NCBI GenBank assembly: GCA_020137815.1
Contig: CM035360.1
Coordinates: 5,642,001-5,706,000 of the forward strand
Length of the DNA: 64,000 nt
Direction: 5' to 3'
From: Hormiphora californensis
Taxonomy: Eukaryota; Animalia; Ctenophora
Part shown: positions 11,695 through 59,889 of the stretch, piece by piece
How the letters are laid out: each line of letters starts with the position of its first letter
How positions within the stretch are numbered: position 1 is the first letter of the stretch
Position numbers and translations under genes: made by a program
The notes under the pieces: generated by a model
The model's database searches: none
The model's input: only the letters and a program-made list of their open reading frames with translations
Told to the model about the DNA's origin: nothing

Positions 11695-11905
11695 TTTATT
11701 TATTTACTTTTTGTAAGTTGTTTAGTCTGTTTTAGGGCTTTGAGAACTATTTTATTGCTTAGGCTAAAGTATTACTAGCTTTGGGTCTCGACTACAAATA
11801 TTTCCCAGACATTTTGACAAGAGATATACCTCCACATAGCTATGATGACCTAGGAATAGGGTGTGGTCTGACCCAGACACGATTATCTAAGAACTACGGT
11901 TGGAC

Positions 11906-22520
<10,615 letters not shown>

Positions 22521-27719: not shown

Positions 27720-27759
<40 letters not shown>

Positions 27760-30700: not shown

Positions 30701-31036
30701 TACAGAGTCTCTTTGGTTGATCTCTGTCACTGATGAGAACCTCCTGCACTTGAAAAGACTTAACAAGAGAGGAAAGTAGTAACTCTTGAAATTTCACCTT
30801 CTTTTCCCCGTGTGCAGGTATTACCGGAAGCCCTAGCTCTTGCGGACCAAATAACCAGCACAACATCACCGCTAGCAATGCGGGAATCCCTCCATCTTAC
30901 ACGGATATCACAGATCCCCGAGATCAAGGAGCAGTTGGTTAAAGAGGCAGCCGCCCAGGCGAGATGTTTTGCAGGACCTGACTACCGCATTGCGCTGGAA
31001 TCTGTGAAAACCAAAACACCACCCGTGTTTGAGTGA
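22941..31036 (+). CDS. Enoyl-CoA hydratase/crotonase-family protein, probably mitochondrial. Exons 22941-23040, 23223-23326, 23499-23648, 27090-27249, 27515-27666, 30818-31036
   Basis: Arg-rich N-terminal presequence; VITGHGGSFAAGADL; PTIAAINGPAVGAG...CDLR; GISPGMGGS; EIILTGR...AERMGVV. Confidence 0.9.
23843..24752 (-). CDS. Secreted C-type lectin domain protein nested antisense in crotonase intron. Exons 24752-24704, 24606-24415, 24270-23843
   Basis: Signal peptide MVMFVLLLFPLLSIAAG; TWLGL, YFNWAPTQPNN, GKWHD, CE motifs. Confidence 0.85.
24855..25142. repeat. GA-rich minisatellite (GAGACAGCGACACTGACAGATAGAG...)
   Basis: Several diverged copies; one more unit at ~26679-26699 beyond the LINE. 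Confidence 0.85.
25143..26672 (-). mobile_element. 5'-truncated non-LTR retrotransposon (CR1/L2-group RT) with (CAAT)n tail
   Basis: ORF 26675-25611: GVPQGSILGPILF, LFADDT, KFLGVIVDSKLSW; 3' UTR ends in CAAT repeats; interrupts a minisatellite. Confidence 0.88.
26852..27110 (+). repeat. 36-bp tandem array containing 7 copies of a crotonase 3' splice acceptor plus exon start
   Basis: Unit ACTTCACAGTCCTTCC(T/A)TTTTAG|GAGTACTACGGTT; last copy continues into the exon. Confidence 0.95.
27265..27373 (-). mobile_element. hAT-type MITE
   Basis: TIRs and 8-bp TSD GTTTAAAT. Confidence 0.92.
27721..30814 (-). mobile_element. 5'-truncated L2/CR1-group LINE (partial APE endonuclease plus uninterrupted RT ORF) with (TTA)n tail, in crotonase last intron
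   Basis: ORF ending 28080: NVYRPP, IAGDLN, PTH..GGTLDLV, SDH, NYRPVS, LDMSAAFDTVDH, GVPQGS, LYADDSQ; TAA repeats at 27721-27760. Confidence 0.95.
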
Positions 31037-32270: not shown

Positions 32271-32950
32271 ATCGACCTGGATTACAGGAGTTAGAGGAGT
32301 AGTAGTGATGATGTAGAGGAGTAACTAAACAGCGGGAATGCAGATTTTAAGGGAGTTAGAAAATGGAGTTTTATGGACTTATCAGTTATATCGGGGTGGT
32401 GCACGAGAGAAGGTAGAGTTCAGAGGAAGCATGACAGAGCATGATGGTGACAGAGAACTGACGTAAAGTTGAGGCTGCTATCAAATTATTTATTATTACA
32501 CATAAACTTGTTGAGTTACACATGAATAAGATAAACCCCATATATAATTATCCAGAAGTCAGCTGATACATATTCTCAATTAAAGTGTTCGATTTGTATT
32601 TTATCCTTGCAACGATGTGTAATGTTAACTGCCTAGAATAGAGTTATATCAATAAGTTTCCATTGCTAACAATCATGTGTTATTCTGCCTGACCCCAATT
32701 TGATGGGGTTGGCGGCGCCAGACATGTGTTATTTGTTTTTGTGAGAGTGTCATGTATCGAGTTAATATATTGCATAATTATGTTATGATTGAAGCGTGCT
32801 TGAATACATCAAATATTGTGTCTACTGTCTGATAAGTTCATTATTTTGATGTGGTAATTGGGTGGTACCCTTCTTGGGACAACTCATCATTGTTTTGAGT
32901 AATATTTGACAGAAAAAAACATAACTAATATTCTAAATATTTTAACAGCA

Positions 32951-35900
32951 ATGTATCACGCTGGCGACTCTGAACACTACCAGAGAAAACTGAAGAATGA
33001 AAACTTCAACGCCAAAGAATGTAAGTACGATCAGTCTGTGTGTGGTTCTGCAGCTCAGGATCTGTATATTTAACTCCTTTTCCGAGAGGATTCTATTCAA
33101 ACTCTGACACTGTCAGAGCATTGGCCTGACAACTCTCACACCCCATCCCTGACACCCTCTGACACCCTCTCTGACACCCCCTCTGACACCCTCTCTGACA
33201 CCCCCTCTGACACCCTCTCTCCTTCGTTTTTTAGTTGTCCAGCAGCTCTGTAAGAATCTAGATAATGCTCAGGACCTGTACAGTATGAGGAAGGTGGTGG
33301 AGGGCATCAAACAAACCAACTCATCAGGTCGGGGGATATGAGTTATTGGTTGGGGGAGATAGTTAGAGAGGGGTCTCATTGTGTTGTCGATCGTATCGTA
33401 TCAAGGAGAAACCACTTGTTATTAATCCATGGACAATGTAATATTCACAGTATGAATATCCAGATCTAAGACCAGCTGTATAACCCCTCCCCCTTTTCTA
33501 GATCTAACACCCTGTAACAACCCTCCTCTCTCTCCCCCAGATCTGTATAACAACACTCCCCGCCCCAGATCTCCATTATAAACCCATCCCTCCCCCAGAT
33601 CTCCAGCAGAATGTGTACCTGAACTACGATCAGTTTATAGAGACGAGTAAGGAGATCACATACCTGGAGGCTGAGGTATACAAGCTGGGTCATCTTCTTA
33701 CTGAGCAGAAGGCTCTCATATCAGCACTCACGGATCCTGACCAGACTGGGTTTAACAAGTTAGTTAATTATTAATTAATTAATTAGTTACTAACATTACA
33801 ATTAACAAGTTAGTTAACTCTAAATCTTTATTGAACAAGTTAATAATTGATTTATTGAGTTGCAATCTTTGAGTTCAAGCTGCAGAGAACATATCTTATT
33901 TATCTCCTTTCGTTAGTCAAATGCACGTGTATCACATTGTTTGTTGCCAGGTCCGATGCTCGGGATAGTTCCGGGCCACTAACAGACCAGGACCTAAGTT
34001 TAACCAGCCTTGTGGAACTAGTTCAAGGTGCTGCTGTGCTACAGGATGTCCCTGACAGGAAGATCATCCACAGCGGTGTTATTACAGGTGCGATATATGA
34101 CGTCACATGCCCATATATATGGTTTTTTTCGAGATATGATATTATGCCCATATATGCAGTGTATTTCAATAACATTTCTCTCTCTCCAGAGCTGAAGGAT
34201 GATGAGGAGAGGGAAGTGAGGATATTCCTGTTGAACGACTGTGTCATGAGCGCCGTCCCTACCAAGAGTGCCTGGATGTCTGAGAGCTACAAGGTAATTT
34301 GCGGGGAGAATCTCGTGTTTGTTATAGAAACTATCCTTTAGACTTTAAACTGTAGCATTGTCTGTCAGTAGTTTATTATAGAAAATATCCTTTAGAGTTT
34401 AGCTCAAAACTATCAAACTTTGCTGTAAAAACTCCCTCTCACCCAGATGTGTGATCTATTGGAGCTGAAGAATGTCACTATAACGGAGGGGAAGGCGACC
34501 TTTACAGGAAACCTCACATTCAGGATAACTCAGTACCCGGCTAACACCTTCACGTACAAGGCACAGAATGAACAAGTCAAGGTAGGTTTTAGAAAACCCA
34601 TTTTACCGGAATCGATTATAAGTGTTAAAAATATATTATTGGGTACAGTGTACCGGGTACCCCCTCTTGCTTCCACGAGATTTGAAGTGTACTGGAAAGC
34701 GCGGAAGAGGGGACCGTAACAGGAATTGAAGGTTTGGATGTCTTTTTAATCCATCACACACACACCCCATCAGAGAGAGTGGGTATCGCTGATAAAGCAG
34801 GCACAACAGGACTGTAAGGAGACTCCTAGCAACTCAGAGGATGCAACCTCTATGGCGTGCAGTCCAGGGGGCAGTGATATAGAGGGCACTACGGCTGAGG
34901 AAAAACGTAGAAAGGTACTGGCGGAATCAATGTTACAAACCCATTATTATAATTTTTCGTATCTAACTTGACTTAGATTACCGTTTTGGCGTAATTTGCG
35001 GTCAAAGTATGCCAAATCAGCCGAAAATGCCTAAAAATTAGTTAATTGGCCTTCTTTGACCGCAAAATTACGCCAAAACGGTAAGAGATAGGCTCTAAAT
35101 TTTTCCACAACTCTTAGATTGAAATTTTTTTCTGAACAAAATGGCACCAATGAAAAGTCTCTAAACCATTCCTAAGTGGCTATAGCATATAGCCAAAATA
35201 CGGTTATGCGCATATCTAATTATCCAATTATCTAATTAACCAGATGAGATAGAGACTTAATTTCAGCACCTACCCCCACTAATGCGAGGACGCTACACAA
35301 TCTAGTGCCCTTGATTTTTTCTCTACTCGTCTCCTAAGATGGTTTTTGGGTTTTCCTGCCAGGCTAGAAATACATGTATTTACATGTGTTTACTTCTTGC
35401 GCGCTCAGCGCGCGTGCGCACTTCCGATTATCGTGTACTTTTTTTTGGTGATACTAGACACCTATCCGGACCTATTGGTGAAGAAATTAGCTTGTTAAAA
35501 ATTTTGCTGAAAAAATATACTAAAATTCCCTAACTATAGATACTACAGTACTGGACATTCAATTTCCCCTTCTCACTAACCCACTGTCATATCTTTCTGT
35601 CAGAACCTCCAGCTAGAGCGACTGCAAGAGCTCCCTGAGCATCTGGACGTGTGCATTGCACAAAGGAACTTTGATGACGCTGTAAGGAGGATAAGGAATG
35701 CAAAACAGGCCCTGAATGAGTAAGTTATATTGTCAGCTGAGAAATATATCCTTTCTTTTTTGTCTGTTATAATTAACAATCGCAGCTACATTTGCCTATC
35801 TAACTTACTGCTTTTGAGTACAAACCGTGGGAAACAATATCACATGTCACCTACCTAGCAGCTCTGTATTATAGTGTCCACATGCAGTAGTTCATTCTTG

Positions 35901-38900
35901 TCACATGTATCTAGGTTGGAGCAGACGAGTAACGCGGAACTAAAGGGTCGGATAGATAAGAGAATCAGACAGCTAACTGACATGTTAGTGGATGTTAACA
36001 TGGGTGCGGGCATGTACGCCTATGGGAAGGCAAGCAAGAAGCCTGTGAAGCATCTCATCATGCTGGACAAGGTGAGGGATCGTTGCAGTTCCACAATGTT
36101 CCTGGGAGTTGCAGTTCTATAATTCAGTGGCATATATTATCTGCAGTTGTGCCATTCATGTTTTTTGTGAAAAATAGTGCCCGTTTCACCTATCACAGTT
36201 GGGCAAATTATTTTGGTACGTCTGTAAAATACTACAATATAGATGATTCACAACAGCTCTCGCTAACAGGTGATTCAAGCTACTGCCCTGTTCCTGAGGA
36301 ACAAGTCCCTAACTTTAAAGATGACACTGAGGAGAATCAAGATGGAGGGCACCATGACACTGTATATTCGGAAACTCTCCCAGGTATGTCATGAACATGA
36401 TAATTCCATCCTAATTCCCCAGAGACAGAATTGAGTACGATGTACCCTGAACTCTCTCTTAACAGGGAAGGGAACAGCACAGGATAGAGAGGGGTACAGA
36501 TTTGGTGGTGGTATAGTGGGTGTACCCAAGAGACAGAAATGGTGTAATTATAGTCTCGCTTTCTTTTTTAACCATTCCCAATTCACTATTCATGTTTTAC
36601 AGGCGTTCTTCAACACAGTTGCAGTGGTCGGTGTTGAGTTTCAATCAGTGTTTAGTGCCACTAATACTAGCTGTTTACCGGGTATGTTTTAGTAGGTACC
36701 TGTGTTAGTAGGTACATGTGATACCTGGTAGGTACAATCATACCCACCCCACCAGCTGATTAGAGTTTTTTAGAATCAAATAAAACTTCATTCTAACTCA
36801 TCGATCTAACATTTCAGCCTACGTGTCCTGGGTTGAGTCAGAGTTGTGTATATTCACTGAGATGTTCTCCCGTCAAGTCTTCCCCCAGGGTAGTGTCCTG
36901 GGTCACGGTGTAGCGGGGGAGTGTGTTGCCATCGCTATGACACATGCTCTACAGGTACGAGGGTGGGACAGTCCCGCTGGGACCCAATATTTAACTGCAT
37001 GACACTCATGACCATTTAACTTTTGAGTTTTACACTTAAATTTTAAGTGTAAACCTGAGAAGTGTGAAGTATTTTCGTAATACCAATGATTCCCCCTGTA
37101 CAGTTAAACGAGAATGGTCTCGACTTCCGGTTTCTACTATTCCGTCTCCTTCACTCAGAAATATCATCCACCCTACAAAGGAACCATATCCAAATTATTG
37201 AGGCCATCCAACTCCGAGCCAAGGTATGATCTAGACTGTAGTATTGTGTATATTTGCAGACTGTTAATTCCTTCATGTCTTGATGAGTCTTGTTGAGTAA
37301 TTCATGATCCAACCCTCTCCTTTCCTCTATAAAAACACGACTACATCTTGAATCTTCGCCCTACGACCCTGTCTCTTATGACTTTATCAGAAACCTACGA
37401 CCCTGTCTGACTTTATTAATCCTATCTCCAGGAAGAGAAGTGGAAGATGGTATACATGAAGAGAGCTGATTTGACGAGGCTAGAGGAACTACTGGGCTTC
37501 TATAACGTCGACATAAAGAAGGTATCAGCAATCCTTCACCTAAATAATAATAAAACTCGCCCGATACTATGATCGGCGATAGCCAGTACTGTGTAACTAA
37601 CCCAATAACTTTGCGACCAGTACTGTGTAACTAACCCAATAACTTTGCGACCAGTACTGTGTAACTAACCCAATAACTTTGCGACCAGTACTGTGTAACT
37701 AACCCAATGACTTTGCAGTACTGTGTAACTAACCCAATAACTTTGCAGTACTGTGTAACTAACCCAATAACTTTGCGACCAGTACTGTGTAACTAACCCA
37801 ATAACTTTGCAGTACTGTGTAACTAACCCAATAACTTTGCAGTACTGTGTAACTAACCCAATAACTTTGCAGTACTGTGTAACTAACCCAATAACTTTGC
37901 GACCAGTACTGTGTAACTAACTCAATAACTTTGCGACCAGTACTGTGTAACTAACCCAATAACTTTGCAGTACTGTGTAACTAACCCAATAACTTTGCGA
38001 CCAGTACTGTGTAACTAACCCAATAACTTTGCAGTACTGTGTAACTAACCCAATAACTTTGCAGTACTGTGTAACTAACCCAATAACTTTGCAGTACTGT
38101 GTAACTAACCCAATAACTTTGCGACCAGTACTGTGTAACTAACTCAATAACTTTGCGACCAGTACTGTGTAACTAACCCAATAACTTTGCAGTACTGTGT
38201 AACTAACCCAATAACTTTGCGACCAGTACTGTGTAACTAACCCAATAACTTTGCAGTACTGTGTAACTAACCCAATAACTTTGCGACCAGTACTGTGTAA
38301 CTAACCCAATAACTTTGCAGTACTGTGTAACGACAACGAAGGATGAGGAAGTCACACTAGGATTGATGTTGTGTAACAGTGTACTCAGCTTTGTTCGGTC
38401 CTTCCATTCCTACCTACTGGATGCCAAAAAGGTAAACGAACTGACATTTCAATCCGGGAATCAGAATATAATTCCAGGATGTGACATATATTACACATTG
38501 GGATTTGAATAACCTTGGAACTATTAAGGGGTTAAATTTTACTTTTTTACTACATCCGTGGCCTCTTTCAGATGTATAACCCAAGAGTAAAAAAGCAACT
38601 GATAGCCTCTACGAGGAGCTGTCTTACTAACCAACACTTCGCACTCAGTGTCGCAATGGTGGTAAGTTACAACAGACAGAAACAAGTAAACAACCAATCA
38701 GAACTCGTTATTTAGGTCACGTGACTGGTTATCAGCCAATCAGGGACCAGTATTTCCTGATTCGGTCGGTTCCTGGTGGTAAGTTACAACAGACCGCGTG
38801 GTTCGTCTGGCGATGCGATCCTAGAGTTTGCTTAGATCGCGTTTGCAGAACGAGACAGAGTTCGTAAATAATACGGGCATATTTTTATTGAGGTCCTTTA

Positions 38901-41253
38901 TAGAAACAGAAAGATCACCTGTACCACTAATTAGATAGTTAGGGTAGCGACTGGCTATTTGAAACAGTTTTTCACTTTTTTCCCTTGCCTGCCCACAAGT
39001 CAAGTCGAACCCAAATTTTTTTGACCTTGTGTTACCGAGACAGTCCCTGGGTAGTTTTTTGGGTGGTTGGAGATGTCTCATTTTGTCTTCCGGGGTCAGG
39101 GTCACGTGATATCTATCCAAATTTGGTGTTTCAATTTACCCGCCTCGGTCTGCTAATTTGAAACACCCGTATCTCCCTCAATTTCTCCACGAAACCAAAA
39201 TTTTTGACATTGAATAGTTAGAAAAGGGTTGTGCAGAGCCATTCCATGTCTGAAATCTGAATTTTGTTGAACGTGCTTGGTGCAATGACCTTTTCCAAAA
39301 ACTGTTTCAAATTAGCAGGAAAACAGTTTTTGCCTCATATTCGGCCAACTTTTGGCGGAAATGACTCAAATCATAGTTTATATCCTGCCTCACACGGCGT
39401 GCCTGGTGAAATTTTAACACGACCTAGCATGCAACGGGAAACCACCACTTGTACGTGGTAGCTGAGGGTCTACAGAATGGCGCTACGGTGCGGGAAAAAA
39501 AAGTCCATGCCCTAAAATCGTTTTTTTTTACTTTTATTTGATTTGGGTCAAAATTGGCTATATTAAACGTGGCCCCGAAAAATCCATAATGACTTAGCAC
39601 ACGAAATATGTCACCCCTACCTATTTTTGCACGTAGAATCGATTGCCGTTGAAGTCGAATCTCTAAAATGACTGTAAAATGGTCAAAAGTTGATTTTTTA
39701 CCATTTTTTGGAGGTTTTTGGCCCCTAAACCATTGAAAACGTTGAGATAGGAATTTGAAATTAGTGCCAATCGTTAAAATGGTCATTTTTCTACCAAGAA
39801 CCAAGTTTTCGTGTATATCCGATTTATGGTTAGATTTGGGCAAATTGTTGAAATCTGCCAACTAGGAGAACCGTAACTTGATTTTCTTGTTTTTTGGATT
39901 TTGGCATTTTTGACAAACTTCTGATTGAAATGGTCAATCGGGACCATGCTTAAGTTGTTTATGGGACAATTTTCGACTAAAATCCAAGATTTCATACCAA
40001 TCCAATAACAGATCGTTGATTTATAGAAAATTTAAGTAGGAAAAACGGTGAAAATAAGCAAGAAAAGTTGTTATTTTCACCGTTTTGCCTACTTAGATTT
40101 TCTATAAATCAACGATCTGTTATTGGATTGGTATGAAATCTTGGATTTTAGTCGAAAATTGTCCCATAAACAACTTAAGCATGGTCCCGATTGACCATTT
40201 CAATCAGAAGTTTGTCAAAAATGCCAAAATCCAAAAAACAAGAAAATCAAGTTACGGTTCTCCTAGTTGGCAGATTTCAACAATTTGCCCAAATCTGACC
40301 ATAAATCGGATATACACGAAAACTTGGTTCTTGGTAGAAAAATGACCATTTTAACGATTGGCACTAATTTCAAATTCCTATCTCAACGTTTTCAATGGTT
40401 TAGGGGCCAAAAACCTCCAAAAAATGGTAAAAAATCAACTTTTGACCATTTTACAGTCATTTTAGAGATTCGAATTCAACGGCAATCGATTCTACGTGCA
40501 AAAATAGGTGGGGGTGACATATTTCGTGTGCTAAGTCATTATGGATTTTTCGGGGCCACGTTTAATATAGCCAATTTTGACCCAAATCAAATAAAAGTAA
40601 AAAAAACGATTTTAGGGCATGGACTTTTTTTTCCCGCACCGTAGCGCCATTCTGTAGACCCTCAGCTACCACGTACAAGTGGTGGTTTCCCGTTGCATGC
40701 TAGGTCGTGTTAAAATTTCACCAGGCACGCCGTGCTCATGCTCATATTGAACAACAAAAATTTCGACAATCCAATCGGAGAAAATTGTTTCAAATAGCCC
40801 TCCTCAGTGTTTCAAGTTACCAGACTCTCTTCACTGTGCTACAGCACACACACGACACCAATCAGAGAGCAAATAACGCGCATTTGTTTCAAATAACCAG
40901 AGCACGTGTTTCAAGTTATCAGACACTGTTTCAAGTTAGCAGGCGTTTCAAATTGCCAGTCGCTACCCTAATCATTCTCTACCTCGACTCAGGACACAGA
41001 GGATGAACAGAACAAATCAATTCTGAGTTCCAGTAAAATCTTCTACAACAGAGCATTCATCCCTGCTGTTGTGGCCTTCCTAGAGTCTCAGGTTAGTGGA
41101 AAAGTTACATAGTATTACATCATCCTAGATGCTCGGTGGCACACAATCAAAAGGGGGCCGGGAGGCTGCGTGACAAGTACACCTAACATTTCTCTTCTAC
41201 AGGTGTTTATGCAGCCAGTGGTAGAGTTGCGAGCCGTCATAGAACAAGTAAAG
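32951..41253 (+). CDS. EXOC8: Exocyst complex component 8 (Exo84), multi-exon; terminal exon not resolved
   Basis: ENFNAKE; DLQQNVYLNYDQFIETSKEITYLEAEV (Vps51-like N-terminus); PH-like IFLLNDCVM; ELPEHLDVCIAQRNFDDAV; C-terminal helical exons. Confidence 0.85.
37584..38331 (+). repeat. 30/34-bp tandem array, ~24 copies of branch point, acceptor and exon start of an EXOC8 exon
   Basis: Unit AG|TACTGTGTAACTAACCCAATAACTTTGC(GACC); final copy continues TACTGTGTAACGACAACG into exon 38321-38431. Confidence 0.95.
38678..38775 (+). mobile_element. hAT-type MITE lacking left TIR, flanked by a 19-bp duplication
   Basis: GTGGTAAGTTACAACAGAC at 38659-38677 and 38776-38794. Confidence 0.85.
38940..40970. 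mobile_element. TIR element hosting the nested foldback insertion
   Basis: 26-bp TIR TAGGGTAGCGACTGGC(T/A)ATTTGAAAC at both ends; no coding capacity seen. Confidence 0.8.
39393..40734. mobile_element. Non-autonomous foldback transposon, Chapaev/CMC-like, copy 2
   Basis: Near-identical to 5154-6493; CAC...GTG termini; 4-bp TSD CTCA. Confidence 0.92.
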
Positions 41254-41612
41254 GTCAGTAGTTTGTATTCCTATCCGGGGAGGGGGGGGGGGGCTATGAG
41301 CCGTCATAGAACAAGTAAAGGTCAGTAGTTTGTATACCTATCCGGGAAGGGGGGGGGCTATGAGCCGTCATAGAACAAGTAAAGGTCAGTAGTTTGTATT
41401 CCTATCCGGGGAAGGGGGGGGGCTATGAGCCGTCATAGAACAAGTAAAGGTCAGTAGTTTGTATACCTATCCGGGAAGGGGGGGGGCTATGAGCCGTCAT
41501 AGAACAAGTAAAGGTCAGTAGTTTGTATTCCTATCCGGGGAGGGGGGGGGGGCTATGAGCCGTCATAGAACAAGTAAAGGTCAGTAGTTTGTATACCTAT
41601 CCGGGAAGGGGG
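41231..41612 (+). repeat. ~65-bp tandem array, 6 copies of EXOC8 exon end plus putative 5' donor
   Basis: Unit GAGCCGTCATAGAACAAGTAAAG|GTCAGTAGTTTGTAT...G-run. Confidence 0.92.
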
Positions 41613-41734
41613 GTCTTTTCTGTATGGACTGTTAGTGTTGGTATATTTGGTAAAAGAAACTAATAGTTACACCTATCAAGTATATGCATTTTAAAAGTTT
41701 GTCTTTTCCATCACTCCATCACTCCATCACTCCA

Positions 41735-44066
41735 TCACTGCATCCAGCACAGCCCACAAGATTTAAGGCAATTCCTGGACATCCACTTTGTGTAAGTTTT
41801 GTGATAACAGAATCCCTCTCCTTGCCAGTAACTACAGTACAACTGGTAATCGAAACAAGACACATTGCTCTTTTCTTCCTCTTCCTCAGGTTCTGTCTCA
41901 CTACCACCTCCGCTGGATGCATCAGTTGTGTCTGGCCTCCACTGAGTTACAGAGACAAAGCTCCCAGCGGGTCCCCCAACATTATATTTGTTCAGGGTGT
42001 CGATATCAAACTTGTGCCCAAAACTCTCCAGCACCTCCCCGTTAAGAGCTGCACTGTAACTATCAGCTCCTACAGTTACCTTCAAAGAGAGACTATCACC
42101 TTCAATTGTGGGGTAGTCTCCAATCACCTTGGTCCCCCAAGTTCCACTTGTCTTACTGTTGATCCGGTAGACCCCTTTAGCCTCCTGGAACTCGATATGA
42201 TATGCAATATCGCTGCTTGAGAAGACGTTAAAGAACCACTTCCCAGTAGATGACGTCACAGAGGTAACGTTAACTTCAAACATATCTCCCGAGGAGACCC
42301 CATCCAGTTTGATCTTCTTCTTCTTAGTGATATCTGTGGTCTGGTATACAGAGTTGTAGGTGACCTGGTCATCCTCACTAGCATCGTCATCTTGGGAGCT
42401 GTCTGATCCGTCCAGGGCAAGGATGGGGTAGGATGCCCAGTAACTGTACCCGTCAGAGGAGCACCCTCGCTGTAGCTTAAAGTACCCATCAATACCCCAG
42501 GATGTGCCCCAGCTGTTCTTAATTAGCAGAGAATCAGCATCGTACCCAACCAGGGTTACCAAGTGGTTACAGTTCTCCCCCAGACAACTGTCAATAGTTC
42601 CACTTTCGTAGTAGTAGACGGTGTCATCTACGTAGACACAGATAGCTACTGGTCCGTAGCTGCCCAAGTTGGTTAACATAGAACTCTCTGAGTCGGATTC
42701 TCTCATGACCTGAAAAAGAACTTGGGTAAAACATTTGGACACATTTTATATTGATTGAGGCAGCCTGTTATCATGTTCAAAAGATAAGACTTGAAGGAAG
42801 GACCGCTATACTAAAACAAGAATAATTTCAGTTTGTTCACCTAACGGGTAGGTATCAAGTCTAAATACCTTGTATCCAGTTAGTTGTGCCCCCTCCAACC
42901 CATTAGTTCCATCCCTGGAACAGTCATCTGCTGTCTTGGCTCCCTCATAGGGGGTATCCTCTAGCAGTGCTACAAAGTTATTCTCCTTGATATCAGTCCA
43001 GACGGTCGGCCACCACCCACCACTACAACCATACGCGCTGTTACAGTCGATCACCTATAGAGGAGTGTGATGGGGTTAGCTTTGTTCTTACTCTCCATGG
43101 TGCAGAGAGAGCGAGAGATGTTCGAACAAGGCAAGGTTAGCTATGGAAATGTGAGCAAGCAATTTAAGTCCAGTAAAGGTAGCATTTATTGAAAACAAGT
43201 TCTGTCTGCTAACCTGTTGCTCACTGAAGTTTTTAAGGTTCCCCGTTGCTATGAAATAAGATGATTCAACGGTGGCGATGGCACCGAATGCCCAACATGA
43301 ACCACACGTTCCTGTAAAAGAGTGATTTCGAGTTAGAGAATAACGTGTACTATAATAATACAAGCATATTACATAGAAGTGGTTAACAAGTTAGATAAGG
43401 GTGTGCTAACTATTAGTTAGCACACCCACTGGTTAGGCGAAGTCACGGGCGGAGTTTAGTGTTAGAGGAAGTCAGTGTTTTCTTGTACCTACCTTGATTT
43501 TTAACAGGTGTAACAGCCCCGTGATCCCTCCAATCCAGACTCTCCTCATCACTCCGTTTCCCTCTGATCCTCCCAGCAGGACCCATCTTCCCAGCAGGAC
43601 CCATCCTGTTCCTGGGTAGTGGTGGCCTCATCCCACCCTCATCTCCACCCCTTACCTGGGGCTGGGAGGTCCACTTGGCCTTAGTCTCTGTCATGTGAGT
43701 CATGTTAACACCAAGATATCCCTTCTTCTCATCATCTGTCATCATAGCGAAGAAGTTCTCTCCCATTTTGAATTTATCCTCTCCCCGCTCCGCACGGAGT
43801 GCTTGGATCCTTGTTCGGGAGGCTTGGAACAACTTGAACCGCTCTGTTTTAGTTCCGTCAGTTAGAAGATCCTCCATTCGGTGGCCCTGTCTTCGTGGTC
43901 CTCGAAGTTGATCCCTCTCACTGGCCCCCTGGGCTAGGGACCTGTCCCATAAAGCATTGAACTCCGTCCGGGCCTGGAGGGCTTCTGTCCTGGGATGACG
44001 CCTTGCATCTAGTGCCTTGATGGCGCAGAGGACGCCTAGGGCAAACAACACTAATCTTGTCGACAT
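41735..44066 (-). CDS. Papain-family (C1A) cysteine protease with C-terminal galectin-like domain and ShKT domain, 4 exons
   Basis: Signal peptide, prodomain, DWRDHGAVTPVKNQG|TCGSCWAF, CNHLVTLVGY, IKNSWGTSWG; DIAYHIEF...INS..SGTWG; C-terminal 6-Cys ShKT. Confidence 0.92.
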
Positions 44067-44803
44067 GGTGAAATGATCAGTATAGTTAGAGCCAAGTGCT
44101 AAGTGCAGTAGCAGATGTGGGTGTCTATTATTAGCTATCTAAACAATCAGAATATAGCTTCTAGTTCATCCATCGCTTGTAGGAGGGGGATGGACGTGTT
44201 AAAATAACTGCATGGCCTCATGGGTTGCACAATGCAGAGTACAGAGTATCCTGGAACCGGATTCAGTTATCCAAGTTATCCTATACCTGTTTTCCTAATA
44301 AACCCCTTTTCAGGTTGAAATGTTGTAGCAAATAGATGAGATGATGGTATCCCCTACTACAAGCAATGTAAGTAGAGAATCACACACGTGCCAAGGGCTT
44401 GTTTTGTTCAAACCGGAGGTGCGGAGAGAGAGGGTCGAACAATGCGACTAGGGGCTGTATATACGAACTCTTGAACATGTGTGGGACAATATGAGATTCA
44501 TCTTTGAGTTATCACGTGATCTATTGGGAATCCTTGATCATGATTTTTTACGAAGACGTTTATTTTGAATTTATTGTACTTGACTGTATTTTCTTCCCGT
44601 AATTTGGTAACCGATATTTTTCATTTTGTTTCGGACACGGTTGGTAATGGGATCCAGGGACCAACACTCTTCGATCGCCACATTATAACACACCATAGTT
44701 TACAGGAAACCGAAATTTTGAAAGATATACATAATCATAATTTACAGCGCTTTTCAGACCATGCTCTGTACTCGAATAATGTCTCCAAGTTCTCAATGTC
44801 TCT

Positions 44804-46974
<2,171 letters not shown>

Positions 46975-47027
46975 GTTGGATCGAATTAATGGACGCTGGT
47001 GGTGGCTCCCAGATATATAGTAACGCT

Positions 47028-47127
<100 letters not shown>

Positions 47128-48283: not shown

Positions 48284-49096
48284 TCATCTGTAGTCCGCAA
48301 TCTCCTCCGAGCTCTGTACAATTCCAGTCTCAGCTGCTTTCTTCAGTAGGTCAATCTGTGCTCTCTGTGCCCTGATCTTGGCCCGCTTGTTCTGGAACCA
48401 AATTGTGATGCTGCGTGGCCTCACACCTAGCTGTTTGGCTAGCTCATCTCTCCTTGCTCCCCTGGCGAAATCAGAAACAGCAAAGGCATCCTCAAGTGTC
48501 TTCAGATCCGCAGCAGTGTATTCAGTTCGCTTTGTTCTCATCTTCCCTCCTCCGACAGTCTGGTCCTGGTGGTGAACTGGCTTGGTACATGGTACTACTG
48601 TAGGTAGCTTGGTACATGGCAGGTCAGTTGAGGAATCGGCAGGGTGTAGGGTAACCGGTCGGTGGAGCTGGTGGTGGTGGTGGGCAGGTACCTGTGGGTG
48701 GTTCTGTAGGCCATGGGGTGCAGGCTGGTGGATTTGTAGGCCAGCAGGAGGCTGATGAATTCCTGTGGGAGGTTGATGAAGGCCAGTTGTAGGTGTTTGA
48801 TGTAGTCCAGTAGGCTGAATTCCAGTAGGCTGATGTAGAGCAGGGATGGAGTCCAACTGGGTGCCGGCAGGGAAGTTGTAAGGGTTGAAAGGGGTCCCTC
48901 CGATATGGTAGGTATTGCTGATGATGGTCTGTTGCCTGAGTGTAGCTCCTGGGTAGTAGTATGAACCCTGATCCGCGTCATGATAGTAGGGGTATCCACC
49001 ACGGTTGTTGTAGTATGGTGATTTCTCGGTTTCTGGAGAGCTGCTGCAGGAACTGGAGCCAGCCTGGAGGTCAACTGGGGATCCCGTGTAGATCAT
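48284..49096 (-). CDS. Intronless homeobox transcription factor (Q50, divergent ANTP-like)
   Basis: RTKRTEYTAADLKTLEDAF...RDELAKQLGV...ITIWFQNKRAKIR; P/Q/H-rich N-terminus. Confidence 0.92.
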   Translation of the reverse strand: MIYTGSPVDLQAGSSSCSSSPETEKSPYYNNRGGYPYYHDADQGSYYYPGATLRQQTIISNTYHIGGTPFNPYNFPAGTQLDSIPALHQPTGIQPTGLHQTPTTGLHQPPTGIHQPPAGLQIHQPAPHGLQNHPQVPAHHHHQLHRPVTLHPADSSTDLPCTKLPTVVPCTKPVHHQDQTVGGGKMRTKRTEYTAADLKTLEDAFAVSDFARGARRDELAKQLGVRPRSITIWFQNKRAKIRAQRAQIDLLKKAAETGIVQSSEEIADYR

Positions 49097-49994
49097 GGTA
49101 TCAGTAGCTGTGGTGGTAGCTTAGGTGGTAGTTGTAGTGAAGTAGGTAGCTGTGAAGTAGTTGCTAGTTGTTGTTGTTGTACAGATGGATGATATGATAG
49201 TGAATTGATGGTGTTTAAATACTACTACTACTGTTCAGGAGGGGTGGTATTGGGAGTGTTATTACGTATCAATGTTGTGATACTACGAAATAAAGCTGTA
49301 ATGACGATATCCCGCCCCCTTAATTAGCTTTTTTTCGGTTTGACCTACCCCACCCCTAATGAGGTATAGCAATAGCGCTCCTAGAACCATCCCTAATTAG
49401 GGCACGATATGAGGTTATGTGAATCGTGCAACAAGGGCTAATTAGGGATGGTTATGTGAAACGCAACAAGGGCTAATTAGGGATGGTTATGTGAAACGCA
49501 ACAAGGCCTTGTTGGAGTGACATGTGATTCGCAACCCTAATTATTACCCGATATACGAGATATCATTGCAGTGATACATTTGATGTGTGTCTCTCTGTAG
49601 TTCCAACATTAGAGTTCCCTTGGCCACATTGATGCCTGAGTGAGATTGAGGTCGCCAAAGAGTTCCCCTTTTCATGCTCTTTCTTTTCACCCTCTTCTAA
49701 CTCTTCTTTACATTTGCGGGCCTGGGGCACGGAGAGAGATCATGGTCGAACAAGGTAAAGATCCCCTATGTGTGTGATACAATTGGGACTCATTACTCAT
49801 AAGGTTTATCCCTCAATTGTATAGAGGGTATCTCATGATCCCTACCGACTCAACATGTATTATTCGAATATATCGCTAGCAAACCCCCTTCTGCAATTGT
49901 GGAAAGTATCTCATGATGTTACTAACATGATGAGATACCCTCCACATTGTTAGCCGACTCAACATATAATAATCGAATACATACCCGGACCCCC

Positions 49995-50651: not shown

Positions 50652-51731
50652 ATGTTTCTTATCACACTGCTAGCCTCGTGCCTTGTTTGCAGCACAGCAG
50701 CCACCAGAGAGTTTTACATTGACTGGGAGAACGACAGGTAAGGAGTGCTAGCATCTGGCTGTGGTCTGGAACCCCCTAGGATAACGGAGCCTTTCTGAAT
50801 CCGTTCACTAGGGGGTTTCCAGGCCACAGTCAGACACTACTAGCTAGTATAGACTAAAGGTGCAATGATCTGATATCATAGCGGCCATCATTGATCTCTC
50901 CCTGAACTAAGGTTTGTTAAGGATGGAGAGACATTTCAGTACGCTTCCGCCGGGATGCACTACTTCCGGATCCCCTTTCAGTATTGGGAGCATCGGATAT
51001 TGGCCGCTAAATCAGCTGGTTAGTAATGCAGTGTATCTCTTGTAAGTAGTATAGAGAGTGTGTCCGGGACACAGTCCCATACCCTCCTAAACCATCTAGA
51101 GTCATGACCCCCCTCCCTCCCCCCAAATCCTATGACAAACGGTGGTTCTCCAGTCACGTTCCTGCTCCCCTGCCCCACTCAAGTTACTAAACCCCAATAA
51201 TTTGCAGGTTTGAATGCGATCCAGACATATGTTGCCTGGAACAGTCACGAACCCTCCCCTGGAGTGTACAACTGGTCAGGGAGCAGCGATCTAATCGGGT
51301 TCATTGAACTTGTTAATGCCGCTGAGATGCCTCTAATTCTACGGGTAATGAGCGCCACACACGCGCGTCTTTTGATACAATAACACAGCCGAGTACTTTT
51401 GGTAAATTCGTAAACATACCCCAAACATACCCAGAACCCAGAAATCTGAGATACTTTTTGTAAGTTAATGTCCCTTACATACATTTTCTCTCTGCATGCA
51501 GGTTGGACCTTACATTTGTGCCGAATGGAACTTTGGGGGATTTCCCCCTTGGCTGCTAGCCCATGAGGAAGGAGAGGATGTGGTGTCTGTGAGAAGTAGC
51601 GATGAAGTTTACATGTCCGCTGTTACCCGCTGGCTGGCAGTACTACTACCAAAGATTAAACCTTATCTGTACAAAAATGGAGGCCCTATCATTATGGTTC
51701 AGGTTAGGATCTGTCTGTCTGTCTGTCTGCC

Positions 51732-51774
<43 letters not shown>

Positions 51775-54700
51775 TTTTCTCTCTGTCTGTCTGTCCCTTT
51801 GTCGATTTGTCTGTTTCTATGTTTCTCTGTCTGTCTCACTACTTATCCCGTTGTTCAGGTAGAAAATGAGTATGGGAGTTTTGGTTGTGATCACGAGTAT
51901 ATGAATACCATGTATGATGCCTTCTCCACAATTTTAGGTAGGTATTTCTCAACACGAGCAGGTTATTCACTAGCTAGTAGTAGTAGTAGCTAACTCACTA
52001 GCTAACTCACTAATTCACTAATTAACTAATTCACTAACTCACTAGGTTATTCCCAATTAAAATCAATGTGAAACTACAATCACTATCAGGTAAGGATGTA
52101 CCCTACTTCACGACTGATGGCCCGGGTCTCATCGAGTGCGGGTCATTCCCCACCCAATCAGTACTTACCACAATCGACTTTGGAGTTGGGTACAATGTCA
52201 CCGCTATGCTGGCTAAGTTGAAGACCTACCAGGCGCATGGGCCGGCAGTTAACTCTGAGATGTACACGGGATGGCTGGATCACTGGACCAACAAACACAG
52301 CCACAGTGGAAACAGTAAGTAGTGTTATGTCCCCCTCTCCCTCTCTAGGTACTGATGTTGTGTACTTCACCACGGACGGGAAGAGAGAGTTTGAGTTGAA
52401 TTGTGGGGTGACACCTCCCAACCTATTCGGGACGGTGGATTTTGATCCTCTGGATGATATTATGATGATATTGGGAAGGTTGAGGGAACACCAGACTAGT
52501 GGTCCTTTGGTGAATAGTGAGCTGTACGCGGGATGGTGTGATTGGTACGGAAATGATCACGCTAATACAGGTACGATATAGCAAAGAAAGGGGTTTGCCG
52601 GGTAAATCGGGGAAGTAATGTAATGAATTAGTACGATTGTTCTTATGATGTTGTTACTATTCCAAACAACAATGATCCCAGTACTAAAACACACATCCCC
52701 CTGTTTCAGATGTAACAGCACTTGGTCGAGCTATTGATATTATTTTGTATCAGAACGGCAGTGTGAACCTGTACTTGTGGCATGGGGGTTCAACATTCGG
52801 GCTAAACTCTGGATCCACTGACTACAACACGACCTTTTTCACCCAAAGCTATGACTATGACGCCCCTCAATCCGAATCAGGTAACTATGGCAACAACCAT
52901 GATTCTCCTCAGATGTGAAAGCTCTGGAAAAGAGCATTGATGACCTGTTGAGTAATGGGTTTAGTTTTAATACCTACATGTGGCACGGTGGTACCAACTT
53001 TGGAGTGACTAGTGGTAACCAGTTTGGTAGACAATTCAACCCTACCAGCTATGACTACAATGCGCCCCAGTCAGAGAGTGGTAATATTGTGCATGTCACA
53101 TGATCTCAATTAAACAGGAATATGTCTGCTGCTACTTGATCCCTCTGCTACTGCCACACTTGATCCTGTGATATGATCCCCTCTATTTAAAGGGATACAT
53201 CTGCCCGCTGTATGTTTCCCCTTCACTGTTGTACTGGTGTAACGACACGGAATTTTTCCAGGGGGGGCCGGTGCGGAGCACCGGAATTTTGGAGATACGC
53301 ACGCGACGACGGTGCCGCGAAGCGGCCCCGGAGGAGCAGCGGCAGGGGGTTTGGGGGCCGCAGGCCCCCAATGGGGTCCAGGGGTGAAGCCCCTGGTGGG
53401 GGTCTAGGGGGCGAAGCCCCCGGAAAAATTTAAACTTTTTATACGATTTTCACACATTTTAGGCATTTAGAAGTCCATCTCCACCTTCTTTCTGTTTGAG
53501 TAGAACCTGTATGTCTTGAAGGGGGCGCCGGAGGAGCAGTGGCAGGGGGTTTGGCGGCCGCAGGCTCCTAATGGGGTACTTTTTAACCGATTTTCACTCA
53601 TTTGAGGCACGTAGAAACTGTATATATGCCTTGAAGGGGGCGAAGCCCCCGAAAATTTTAGAATTTTAACTGATTTTCATGCATTTTTTACGTTCTCTAC
53701 GAAATATTTCAATAAAATTTCCATGTTTGGTAAATCCCAGGGGGGGCCGGGCCCCCCCTGGCCCCCCCGGTGTCGTGGGCCCTGGTACAGTAGGGCGTGT
53801 ATGTGTGAGAGAGAAAGTGAGATTAGCAGCCAGAGAAGATATTAAAAATCTTGTTCCGATATGTGATGCTGCAATAGCTAAGGGCAATGTTCAGGATATA
53901 GAGCGAGGAAATGTAGTTAAATTGTCGGCGGGGTAGCTCAATAGGTAGAGCAATGGACGCGAAACCCAGAGGTTGTCGGTTCGAGCCCGGCCCTCGCCAG
54001 ATATTTTTCTAATTTTCCTCCCTATTTAATCCTGAACAAGATCTCATCATTGATATTTAACAAAGCCATTCTTCCACAACCGTGATCTGCCCGCTGTATG
54101 TTTCCCCTTCACTGTTGTACAGTAGGGCGTGTATGTGTGAGAGAGAAAGTGAGATTAGCAGCCAGAGAAGATATTAAAAATCTTGTTCCGATCAGGAGCT
54201 TTCATTTAAACTTTGTCAGGCGTCTTCTCTGTTTCCTCAGCTGTGTCATCTTGATCTCCTCTGCTGTTATAACCCTCTGTGATATATTTGGTAGCGAAGT
54301 TACCCCCACCCCCTTACCGGCGCGTGAAGCGACCTAAGAGTGTTACTGTGTAAGCTGTAACTTCGTTACCAACTGTGATATGATCTGCTGACTGCATGTT
54401 CATTTGTCTTGCACGACCCTCTCCCTCCCCTCGCAGGTGATGTCAATCTGGGGAAGTTTTGGGCAATCAGGAATGCGACAACAAAACACTTTGGACCAAA
54501 CAAACTGCCTGTACCTAGAAATCTACCTAAATTGGGATACCAGGTTGTGAAAACAAACCCGGCAGGAAAGTTGGTTGACCAGCTAACATTCCTAAAGGAC
54601 AGTGATCACCCGCAACCTTTTGAAATACTTGGTAAGTCTACTTGTTTCTGTCTAACCAACAGTGCGCTCAGATCACTGACCCGGTCTCTGTCAGCACAGC

Positions 54701-56248
54701 CAAAAATTCTTATTCAGATTCTCTCAGCTCTCTACTGTTGCATGAATGGGTCAAATAAAGTTGATTGATTAAACAGCATAGCTCTTACCCACAATTTGAT
54801 TTCAGGGGTGTTTGAAGGTATTGTTGGGTACGAATGGGAGGGGGAGATCCGAGGGAACTTGTCTATTGAGACCGTGCACGACCGGGCTTTTATCCTAGTG
54901 GATGGAGAGTATTCAGGGGTAGGTTTATCTAGATAAAGGATACTACTATATCCATCCCACATAAGATGTTGGTAATGAAATTATCACTCCGCGCGAGCGC
55001 CCCAGTGGTGACTTCGTAACCACCATAAGATGGTCATTGGAGGGGGAGTAAGAAAATTGATCCACCCCGGATATCGAGCACTTTGCAGGATCTCAATTAC
55101 CAATTAGTTTTCTAACCATTCCTGAATCCCCTGCAGGTTGCTCGGAGAACTGACAAAAAGCACCACTTCACTCTGGAAGTAAATGTGAACAATAGTTTGC
55201 TAATCTTGGTTGAAAACATGGGTTATATGGGATACAGTCATGCCATGGCCGACTACAACGCACGTAAGTCCAGTGTTTCCCTGATTTGATTGCAGGGAGA
55301 GAGTCCTAGTCAAGAGCTTTCTCGATTTGTTCGACAGACCCATCCTTGCTCAACAAGTAAAATTGTAAAAGCTGGACTGATCAGGTGCCGATATCCAGGT
55401 TACTGTTACAACAGTAACCTCCCCGCACCTGTAATTACCATAGTAACCCCCCTGTTACCCCCAAACCCCCGTTACCATAGTAACCCCCCTGTTACCCCCA
55501 AACCCCATGTTACCATAGTAACCCCCCTGTTACCCCAAACCCCTGTTACCATAGTTACCACTCAATTCCTCAGAGTTCAAGGGTATTGCTGGTGTGACAG
55601 TTGATGGTGTGGAGCTGGTGGGTTGGAAACACTGGAGCACCAACATAATGAACCCCAACATTACTAATGACATGGGAAACTCTGTAGAGGAGGAAACTTC
55701 ACTATCTGATCCGGCTAAAAACTCTCATACGTCTCCGACCGGAAAACCGTTGCTCCCGGGAGGCCCCCATATTTACAGAGCCACCCTGATTTTAGAGAAA
55801 GTGGCGGATACTTTCCTCAATTTTACCGAGTGCTGGAGTAAAGGATTTGTGTCGGTCAATGGAGAGCTACTGGGCCGTTATTGGCCTGACGCTGGACCAC
55901 AGTTTTCACTTTTTCTACCCGGTAAGGAAATGATCATTCATGATGTGTAGGGGTTAAAAAAAGATTGTCTCACAAGATTCTGCCCTTAGACAGGATTATA
56001 TAAGGGAGAGGGTTATTGGTTTGATTGTCATCAATCCCATTATCATGCGAGGAAGCACCATTTGAATCGCTTGTATTTTGAAATGTGAAAGCAATTCATA
56101 TTTTTCAGGAACGTGGCTAAAAGAGGGGGTGAACAAGATCACTGTCATTGAACTACAGAGCTACACTCCTGAAGCTGCTGCTACCGGGGATTGCCTTTAC
56201 ATTACCGACACACCCTATATAGACGGACCTGTTAATGCTAATGCTTAG
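50652..56248 (+). CDS. GLB1: GH35 beta-galactosidase (GLB1-like), multi-exon, with two duplicated exon pairs
   Basis: Signal peptide; MHYFRIP; [16 protein letters not shown]; [17 protein letters not shown]; GGPIIMVQ|VENEYG; VNSE-Y-GW; HGGTNFG; SYDY-AP; [14 protein letters not shown]. Confidence 0.93.
50747..50845. repeat. Imperfect ~100-bp hairpin in GLB1 intron 1 (MITE-like)
   Basis: TCTGGCTGTGGTCTGGAACCCCCTAG ... CTAGGGGGTTTCCAGGCCACAGTCAGA. Confidence 0.7.
53235..53784. mobile_element. GC-rich non-autonomous DNA transposon (hAT-like), inserted into a repeat
   Basis: Splits a sequence that is intact at 54086-54192; GTAC duplicated; right end GTGTCGTGGGCCCTG, degenerate left end ACGACAC. 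Confidence 0.65.
53927..53999 (+). pseudogene. tRNA-like sequence (SINE head or tRNA pseudogene)
   Basis: Acceptor stem GGCGGGG/CCTCGCC, D arm GCTC/GAGC, T loop GGTTCGAGCC; anticodon stem has 2 mismatches and no U33. Confidence 0.75.
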
Positions 56249-57925: not shown

Positions 57926-58850
57926 CTTGTCCTTTGCCCTCCCCCCACCCACTACCTCAACAGACCTTCCTCTCCCTCCCTGGCCCTCCCCCTGACACTG
58001 GTCATGGTCCTCCCCTCTCCCTTTATATTACTCAACAACCCCTGATCTCTAGAAGTAGAACTGGTCACTGCTTTAGTATCGAATTCTATTCTAAGACCCT
58101 TAATTGGGCCCAGATAAATTTTAAATATTATAAGGATCCATTATTACTGGTTACTTCACCACACTGTTTCCTTCCTGATTCCTAATTTTGTCAATATTGC
58201 CGTTTTATCGATAATTATCATCACTTATTTCTTTCCGTTAAACAAGAGAGAGATTTTAAGTTTGTTATGTGTCATATATTATGAGACAAATTATCCGCAT
58301 ACCACACGAATTTACGAAATCCACCATGTAGCTAGTCGAACGAAGTTCATACTATAGGTCGCAACAGCTGTCCGGGCTCTTAATGAATTAGTCTCTTCTC
58401 TTGACCTGTGTTGAATGTTTCCCCGTCTTTAAACAATATTGATTTAGCGATGTTCATGTTATGTCTGTCAGAGCATTGGCCTGACAGTGTTAAGTACCAA
58501 CTGCCGTGAGTAGTGTTGATAAAGATCAACAATTTCATCGTCTCTCTATCACCTGTCTGGCGGCGCCAGAGACGATGCGCTCAGATCGGGTCGTCGCCGC
58601 CAGACAGTCCATCATGATGCATCACAGTCACCTGGTGGCCTATGTTGATAGCTTCCCTATTGTGAATTGATAATATATTTCTGGTGCCAAATCTTGGCTT
58701 TAGTAGAAATCTTGGCTTTGTAGTTGTTCGAATATGACAGCTAGGCGCCTGCAGAAATCCGAATATACGAATGGACGATATCAAACCTCAACTAACTTTA
58801 TCTTAGATCTAAATTTCCTTTACCCATTTTAGGACATTCCCCTGTTCATT

Positions 58851-59889
58851 ATGGACGATAACACAACGGATAAGTACACCCTTCTTCTGTCTATGGAGCA
58901 GCGGGCGCCCCTCATTATGTACGACACCATCGCCCTTATTCTGGCATTTGTCGGCAACTCTGTCGTCCTATACGCGTCCATCCGGTACAACGCTATCAAA
59001 CTCGATAAGATTTCCCTGATTTTCGTCCAAAACTTGGCTGCCTCCGACCTTTTGATGGGTGTGTTCTTTGTGCTGCCAATATGGAGTAGTATCGTGGCAG
59101 GCCGGTTTATGTTGGGTGATTTCGGGTGTTTTCTCAGCGCCCAACCACCCTGGCTCCCCTGGATTATGAACTCTCTACTCGTTCTCTCTATCACCGCATA
59201 TAGGCTTCTCGTGGCGACGAACCCATTCAGAAGGGTCTCTTGTTTGAGCGTCCGAATTCGGCCGAATATACTGTGCGATTCTGTGGGCTGTTGGTATGTC
59301 AGTCTTGGTAATTCAGTTAGGATTTGGTTCAAAATCGGAGTTCGAGGGATACACAGGGAAATGCGTTTCCTCAATTTACAAGGACGAAAAGACAGAAACT
59401 TTGTTCCTGGTCTATGTTGTTATCTGCCTATCTCTTACTCCCCTGTGCCTAGTTATCATTCTGAACGCCATTCTCGGAGTGATAGCTTTCCGAACCTCAA
59501 AATGCGTCCGAGCGAGATCCCACTATAAAGGCCTGATCATGGTTTGCTTCTTGTCTGGTCTCTTTGCCATCAGTTGGCTGCCGTGGGGCATTTCAACAAT
59601 CGCTAAACTGGCCCACAACCCAATCACTTGGAAGTTTATGCGTCTCCTTTCCTACCATTTCATTATGCTCAACAGTATATGGAATCCCATCCTGTACACC
59701 CTTACCAACCGGAGATTTGCTAGGTTTGTCACCCAGATATGCCATAGCAAGTTGGCCGAGTGGGGCAACAACAAGTCCAGTAGCGCCACCGAGCCACAAA
59801 CACCTCAGAATTGTGGAGGAGGAGAAATTGAGTCCAATGTCGTGGTGAATAATTCAGTGGAGCGTCAACAATCAAACTCTGTGGTTTAA
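58851..59889 (+). pseudogene. Intronless rhodopsin-class GPCR disrupted by a 10-bp insertion (59258-59267)
   Basis: GNSVV, NLAASDL, AYRL, ISWLPW, NSIWNPILY; removing TCGGCCGAAT joins the two ORFs (SVRIYCAILW). Confidence 0.85.

Follow-up and report, generated by a model that had tools for sequence, protein, structure and literature searches.

In a GLB1-type beta-galactosidase gene of the ctenophore Hormiphora californensis, two exons were each duplicated in tandem long ago. The resulting pairs, here called A1/A2 and B1/B2, are likely to be spliced in a mutually exclusive fashion. The predicted isoforms keep the same catalytic residues and differ in the loops around the substrate pocket. We put the probability of this explanation as a whole (old duplications, mutually exclusive splicing and isoforms that differ in pocket loops) at roughly 0.6.

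Two exon pairs in one galactosidase gene

The gene model was built by hand and comprises 14 exons on the forward strand, from 50652 to 56248 of the window, i.e. of the whole 64,000-nucleotide stretch of DNA that was analysed. Shared exons 1-5 (50652-50737, 50912-51018, 51208-51344, 51502-51702 and 51859-51937) form an open spliced frame and encode a hydrophobic N-terminus and the first half of the GH35 barrel, with a PF01301 match in exon 4 (E 2.5e-23) and, in exon 5, the acid/base motif ENEY; they are 54-89% identical to the Mnemiopsis leidyi gene model. Shared exons 8-12 (54437-54631, 54806-54918, 55137-55263, 55574-55921 and 56109-56248) encode the end of the barrel and two beta domains, PF21467 matching exon 11. 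A PF01301 barrel followed by C-terminal beta domains is the arrangement of GLB1-type GH35 enzymes, and every isoform has both catalytic glutamates and the pocket aromatics, contributed by ENEY in exon 5, NSE.Y.GW in A1 and A2, and SYDY in B1 and B2. By its domains and motifs the gene is a GLB1-type GH35 beta-galactosidase, with hydrolysis of beta-galactosides as its predicted activity. The best named orthologue is M. leidyi ACHWQZ_G017571 (P0102), which scores 517 bits; the named match after it reaches 346. Exons of the Hormiphora gene are 38-89% identical to P0102, with a median of 53% over 10 shared exons, and these identities suggest that its host is likely well removed from Mnemiopsis.

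Between the shared halves lie the four exons that the first-pass annotation had proposed, each of them open, preceded by AG, followed by GT and in phase 1-1. Exon A1 (52090-52314, 225 nt) encodes strands 5-7, helix 6, the nucleophile and the loop that follows it, and contains one N-glycosylation sequon. A 34-nt GT..AG spacer (52315-52348), which would introduce a stop and a frameshift if retained, separates it from its paralogue A2 (52349-52570, 222 nt), which has GWCD after the nucleophile, a motif conserved in its lineage, and no sequon. After an ordinary intron of 139 nt (52571-52709) comes B1 (52710-52880, 171 nt), encoding helix 7, strand 8 and the YDYD loop, with the derived motifs GGS.F and QSYDY and two sequons. 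A 32-nt GT..AG spacer (52881-52912), whose retention would again cause a frameshift and a stop, leads to the B1 paralogue B2 (52913-53080, 168 nt), which is nearer to the canonical sequence (GGTNF, PTSYDY) and lacks sequons. The proposed paralogy was borne out against 500 shuffles: A1 and A2 share 30 identities over 76 columns (z 15.6) and B1 and B2 share 28 over 56 (z 18.0), whereas the four comparisons of an A with a B exon are at chance (z -0.4 to 0.5). Both A exons align to the same PF01301 positions, 174-245, and the B exons to 254-302 (B1) and 250-302 (B2). Each pair is thus a homologous cluster of adjacent, similar exons that share their phase, differ little in length and encode the same region of the protein.

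The spacers of 34 and 32 nt are, as first noticed, far shorter than the other 11 introns of the galactosidase gene (139-1356 nt), the comparison being with introns of this gene only; the accessible parts of PMC8527503 and PMC6142364 give no figure for the minimum intron size of ctenophores. Each of the four products with one A and one B exon is open (A1B1, 642 aa; A1B2, 641; A2B1, 641; A2B2, 640). Joining all four exons also keeps the frame, giving 772 aa, so exclusion would have to operate at splicing. A1 and A2, and likewise B1 and B2, are very probably mutually exclusive. A steric rule for such pairs, which requires a distance of less than 50 nt between donor and branch point, is set out in the sections of PMC5740500 and PMC7969005 that we could consult. 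Here the entire spacers measure 34 and 32 nt and fall below about 50 nt wherever the branch point lies, the threshold being one established in vertebrates. The first copy's 5' splice site would then sit too close to any branch point for neighbours to be joined, and by analogy with the vertebrate cases we consider that exclusion probably has this steric cause. The corresponding spacers in a relative are also short, yet longer than here, at about 61 and 63 nt.

Several other features of the window were recorded. Within the long intron after B2 (53081-54436), positions 53927-53999 hold either a gene for tRNA-Ser(CGA) or an element derived from a tRNA. The intron also has exact direct repeats, 76 and 36 nt in length, and, at about 53250-53770, inverted repeats in a stretch rich in G+C; the tRNA-like element, the repeats and the G+C-rich stretch are likely nested insertions. 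A single-ORF homeodomain gene (48287-49120, reverse strand) stands head to head with the galactosidase gene, about 1.5 kb from its start. Beyond it, on the same strand, are two tandem cathepsin-like genes (41738-47127) with an I29 propeptide and a Peptidase_C1 domain, both of which have an ShK-like domain as their last part; one of them has the unusual architecture of a galactoside-binding lectin domain between protease and ShK. Further upstream are a forward-strand gene of many exons (32950-41620) with arrays of 30-64-nt tandem repeats at 37582-38331 and 41231-41613, which resembles a gene for the exocyst subunit EXOC8, and two reverse transcriptase ORFs of LINE-like elements, one with an endonuclease domain (25614-30896, reverse strand). 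A reverse-strand ORF with 11 Ephrin_rec_like repeats (14559-15779) is flanked by fragments of BTB (11763-12416) and Kelch (18127-18735) on the opposite strand and is possibly a nested gene. An uninterrupted forward-strand ORF of 520 aa (8672-10234) combines a kinase with a Ribonuclease 2-5A-like domain. Downstream of the galactosidase gene, a rhodopsin-family receptor (58833-59886, forward strand) extends over two overlapping frames matching 7tm_1 positions 1-122 and 103-260, which suggests a frameshift or a short intron.

Loops of the substrate pocket

The structural context was taken from an alignment-based model of P0102 (70 sequences, pLDDT 88.8), which replaced a single-sequence fold of pLDDT 33.6 and resembles human GLB1 with a TM score of 0.85 (E 1e-68). 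In this model the A segment supplies strands 5-7 together with helix 6, strand 7 bearing the nucleophile; the B segment supplies helix 7 and strand 8 as well as the YDYD loop; as modelled, the two exon pairs together span barrel strands 5-8, four of the eight. The equivalents of human Glu268, Tyr270, Trp273, His281, Tyr306, Tyr331 and Tyr333 are identical between the copies. The Glu268 equivalent, in the NSE motif, is presumably the nucleophile, and the ENEY glutamate presumably the acid/base. The first-pass annotation had spoken of a swap of the active site, which is too strong: the catalytic and pocket residues are the same whichever copy is chosen, and what stands of that claim is that loops on the active face differ. 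Human numbering was derived from alignments to 3wf3 (offset by one) and agrees with the residue names in the portion of PMC8100397 that was available, where pocket roles of Tyr270, Trp273 and Tyr333 in the human enzyme are described.

In 67 outgroup rows, 21 columns of the A segment and 25 of the B segment are conserved to 90% or more; of these, A1 keeps 18 and A2 17, B1 17 and B2 19. Changes specific to A2 are Leu274 to Cys, His276 to Trp and Trp277 to Tyr, the Trp277 column being W in 67/67 outgroup rows and also in the uninterrupted P0015 relatives described below; those specific to B1 are Thr312 to Ser and Thr329 to Gln, at columns that are both T in 67/67 outgroup rows. These substitutions are grouped in the loops that follow strands 5-8, on the active-site face. 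In the human enzyme, according to the same portion of PMC8100397, Trp273Leu shifts preference between keratan sulfate and GM1. Because that substitution falls in the same loop, the changed loops may, by analogy, plausibly modify aglycone preference here too. We propose that the loops after strands 5-8 would alter aglycone or linkage preference and leave the galactose subsite unchanged; that the isoforms do differ in substrate preference is, on the sequence, a little better than an even bet.

The most serious competing explanation accepts mutual exclusion and supposes that the isoforms share one substrate preference and differ instead in pH optimum, stability, glycosylation, trafficking or partner binding. 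The identity of all seven catalytic and pocket equivalents from Glu268 to Tyr333 counts in its favour, and the sequon counts, one in A1, none in A2, two in B1 and none in B2, point in its direction for glycosylation. The A1 sequon is, however, missing from the Mnemiopsis model, and the copies carry specific changes at near-invariant columns beside pocket residues that are kept across species. We regard such an outcome as unlikely, if far from negligible, and retain a difference in pocket preference as the favoured reading.

Conservation and combinations of the exons in relatives

The two choices would not be obligately coupled: A1 and A2 appear to share B2 as a partner, with B1 chosen more rarely. 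The Mnemiopsis P0102 gene model, itself a prediction, joins A1 to B2. P0075 is uninterrupted and likewise joins an A1-type to a B2-type segment, and P0028 combines an A1-like end with a mixed B. The eight members of the P0015 cluster (P0015 and P0087-P0093), found on contigs of 1.9-4.8 kb and on two of 181 and 238 kb, have one uninterrupted frame from the exon 4 region to the stop, in which an A2-type segment is followed by a B2-type segment and the exon 8 signature; the A-type placement follows from GWCD and from a position with the A2 clade at 91/91. The three joined relatives that are complete over both segments (P0102, the P0015 cluster and P0075) thus have one A and one B each. The ctenophore-type exon 8 signature occurs in the uninterrupted GH35 frames of the P0015 cluster, P0075, P0028 and P0078. 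From their common signatures and their lack of introns we infer that these genes could be ctenophore retrocopies of isoforms. Such frames could also belong to an intron-poor lineage in which isoforms turned into separate genes.

Transcript and protein collections add to this picture. A marine metatranscriptome run (X1, word share 0.06) yielded two spliced contigs that confirm the joints of exons 4-5 and 11-12, one of them skipping 156 nt between exons 4 and 5 and the other joining exons 11 and 12. None of the four paired exons is covered in X1, which does not count as a sign that they go unused. In contigs of another species (X2, word share 0.00, its RNA nature being a guess) that are 82-88% alike on B2-like pieces, a B2-like stretch runs directly into exon-8-like sequence. 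No joined B1 product was seen among the 332 stored proteins or in a dedicated search of proteins of 187-2000 residues, an absence that weighs little. Of 309 stored proteins that carry the YDYDAP motif, 4 have the B1 signature QSYD, and each of these is a short fragment of B1 type; of 294 that carry the nucleophile motif, 16 have GWCD, and every one belongs to one of three A2-type clusters.

These combinations bear on the idea, raised in the first-pass annotation, that the gene toggles between two enzymes, one made with the outer exons (A1+B2) and one with the inner exons (A2+B1). Its premise was sound on average: over 138 stored proteins longer than 500 aa that match all four exons, A1 scored higher than A2 in 93 and B2 higher than B1 in 116. 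The Mnemiopsis model and P0075 are both of the outer type, and the order A1-A2-B1-B2 would suit a nested A2-B1 block. However, the P0015 cluster joins A2-type to B2-type sequence in one uninterrupted frame, no A2+B1 product is present among the stored proteins, and a look for RNA pairing able to link or guide the two choices gave nothing convincing: only arms of 17-19 nt with 74-79% complementarity, partly of low complexity, were found, and we treat them as chance. Coupled switching is accordingly improbable, and we keep to two separate choices.

Conservation in relatives had been named as a check on the two pairs, and counterparts of all four copies were found there, each pair in the same tandem order. 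This order was deduced from ORFs of ENA records in which gene callers had read through the locus. P0002 and P0009 end in an A2-type exon (72% identity). When their first 101 residues are read in a shifted frame, 57 of 74 positions are compatible with A1 (score 49, against about 15 and at most 22 for shuffles), 44 of 73 with A2, and 69 of 73 with the A segment of Mnemiopsis. The read-through ORF implies an A1-A2 spacer of about 61 nt in the P0002 relative, followed by the A2-type exon. P0010 and P0086 contain a B1-type copy, a 63-nt in-frame spacer and then a B2 copy that over 59 residues is identical to P0102 274-332, the stretch which this exon encodes there. The longest contig is 2117 for both P0013 (B1-type) and P0017 (B2-type), which only hints at a third tandem locus. 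Elsewhere, a metagenome scan of 6 loci with other intron-bearing GH35 genes revealed no tandem copies within the stretches examined; a prokaryote scan gave 80 bacterial loci. Some apparent leads were discarded: P0080, P0111 and P0219-P0229, with repeated motifs, look like fused gene models or assembly repeats rather than exon pairs, P0011 is a false match derived from a repeat, and a kinship of A2 with vertebrate GLB1L-like sequences was dropped, its support being only 50/82.

The copies also resemble their counterparts in other species more than each other. Identity to counterparts amounts to 46/74 for A1 (Mnemiopsis P0102), 51/73 for A2 (P0001), 32/56 for B1 (P0012), and 33/55 (P0102) and 46/55 (P0020) for B2; each copy is 57-70% identical to its counterpart, compared with 38-89% (median 53%) for the 10 shared exons. 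In the trees, copies cluster by position and not by species. The A2 clade has support of 100/98, and a forced grouping of Hormiphora A1 with A2 is rejected (p-AU 0.0014) in a tree of 15 rows, from which five outgroup rows had been dropped at segment cutting because the cutting motif was missing. The B1 clade has support of 86/75, and a forced Hormiphora B1+B2 grouping survives (p-AU 0.10, 27 rows); B1 is also 30/56 identical to Mnemiopsis B2, against 32/56 to the B1-type record. As far as these trees go, the B split is resolved less firmly than the A split. Taken together, the sequences indicate that both exon pairs are old and that the same order is kept in a Mnemiopsis-like relative, and all four copies look maintained by selection.

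This last point is at odds with the notion that one copy, most likely B1, is an unused or decaying relic. B1 was never seen joined among the 332 stored proteins, its branch of 0.94 is the longest of the four Hormiphora exons, and it alters several near-invariant columns, keeping 17 of 25. Yet B1 is open, has good splice sites, shares its signatures with P0010, P0012 and P0013, and its 57% identity to its counterpart equals the level of the shared exons, which makes an unused or relic B1 quite improbable. Finally, that the spacers are spliced out as tiny introns and both copies enter one product, or that the repeat is an assembly artefact, is scarcely credible: the in-frame product of all four exons (772 aa) would not be removed by nonsense-mediated decay, but the A and B exons carry barrel strands that double inclusion would duplicate, the joined relatives have one of each, and copies that are only about 40-50% identical and occur in the same order in a distant relative exclude a haplotype artefact. 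Mutually exclusive use of the two pairs remains the reading we prefer.

Relation to known systems

The elements of this arrangement are known individually: homologous mutually exclusive exons, genes with several such clusters, steric enforcement, mutually exclusive exons at catalytic sites and a ctenophore pair have all been described. As far as its accessible text goes, PMC5740500 lists alpha-tropomyosin and the OGDH exons 4a/4b among sterically enforced clusters, and such exons in 57 human clusters, 9%. The Hormiphora pairs resemble those of alpha-tropomyosin and OGDH in that homologous exons, similar in length and equal in phase, lie in tandem, with donor and branch point necessarily less than 50 nt apart. 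They depart from the clusters in those parts of PMC5740500 in that the whole spacer is 32-34 nt long, instead of a longer intron with a distant branch point, that two clusters stand back to back, and that exclusion is deduced from genes and not from reads. In enzymes, the available portion of PMC7954323 reports 9 events in which mutually exclusive exons touch catalytic or ligand sites, e.g. fly CG42249; PKM1/2 is another enzyme of this kind. As there, exon choice would alter residues beside the catalytic site; unlike there, the catalytic residue is the same in both copies and the clusters span 4 of the 8 barrel strands. The closest case by taxonomy is Mhc2 of Mnemiopsis leidyi (PMC3912159, known to us in part), likewise a ctenophore pair of mutually exclusive exons that changes loops near an active site, although it concerns a myosin motor, a single cluster and an unrelated gene. 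The word 'hydrolase' is absent from the main text of PMC7954323, and 'GLB1' from that of the human survey PMC5740500, as far as these texts were accessible. We found no description of mutually exclusive exons in GH35, beta-galactosidase or glycosidases, or at this locus, in a literature search that covered mostly openly accessible journals and main texts.

It is tempting to speculate further that in ctenophores a single GH35 gene gives rise to a small set of glycosidases that differ in linkage or aglycone preference, through combinatorial choice at two exon pairs which are enforced sterically and rebuild half the face of the catalytic barrel, and that in at least one ctenophore lineage isoforms were retro-copied into intron-poor A2+B2 and A1+B2 genes. 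We hold this extended scenario only tentatively, as something less probable than its simpler core. If true, it would be a direct example of how splice isoforms become paralogues, a transition that the intron-poor relatives would make testable. The simpler core would by itself amount to a conserved two-cluster system of mutually exclusive exons in a glycoside hydrolase of one of the earliest-branching animal lineages. Standard annotation misses the pairs, since the sole Mnemiopsis model found shows only A1+B2.

Alternative splicing of human GLB1 yields the inactive elastin-binding protein by exon skipping and is not known to exchange homologous exons; vertebrates diversify the GLB1 enzyme through whole-gene paralogues. 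Human GLB1 (PDB 3thc) and GLB1L nevertheless have the same fold (TM 0.85 for the Mnemiopsis orthologue), the same catalytic and pocket residues and the same domain order as the ctenophore gene. In the region where human Trp273Leu shifts substrate preference, the Hormiphora exon pairs would amount to a natural loop-swap experiment on the GLB1 fold, in which the catalytic residues stay the same and the loops of the active face come in alternative versions.
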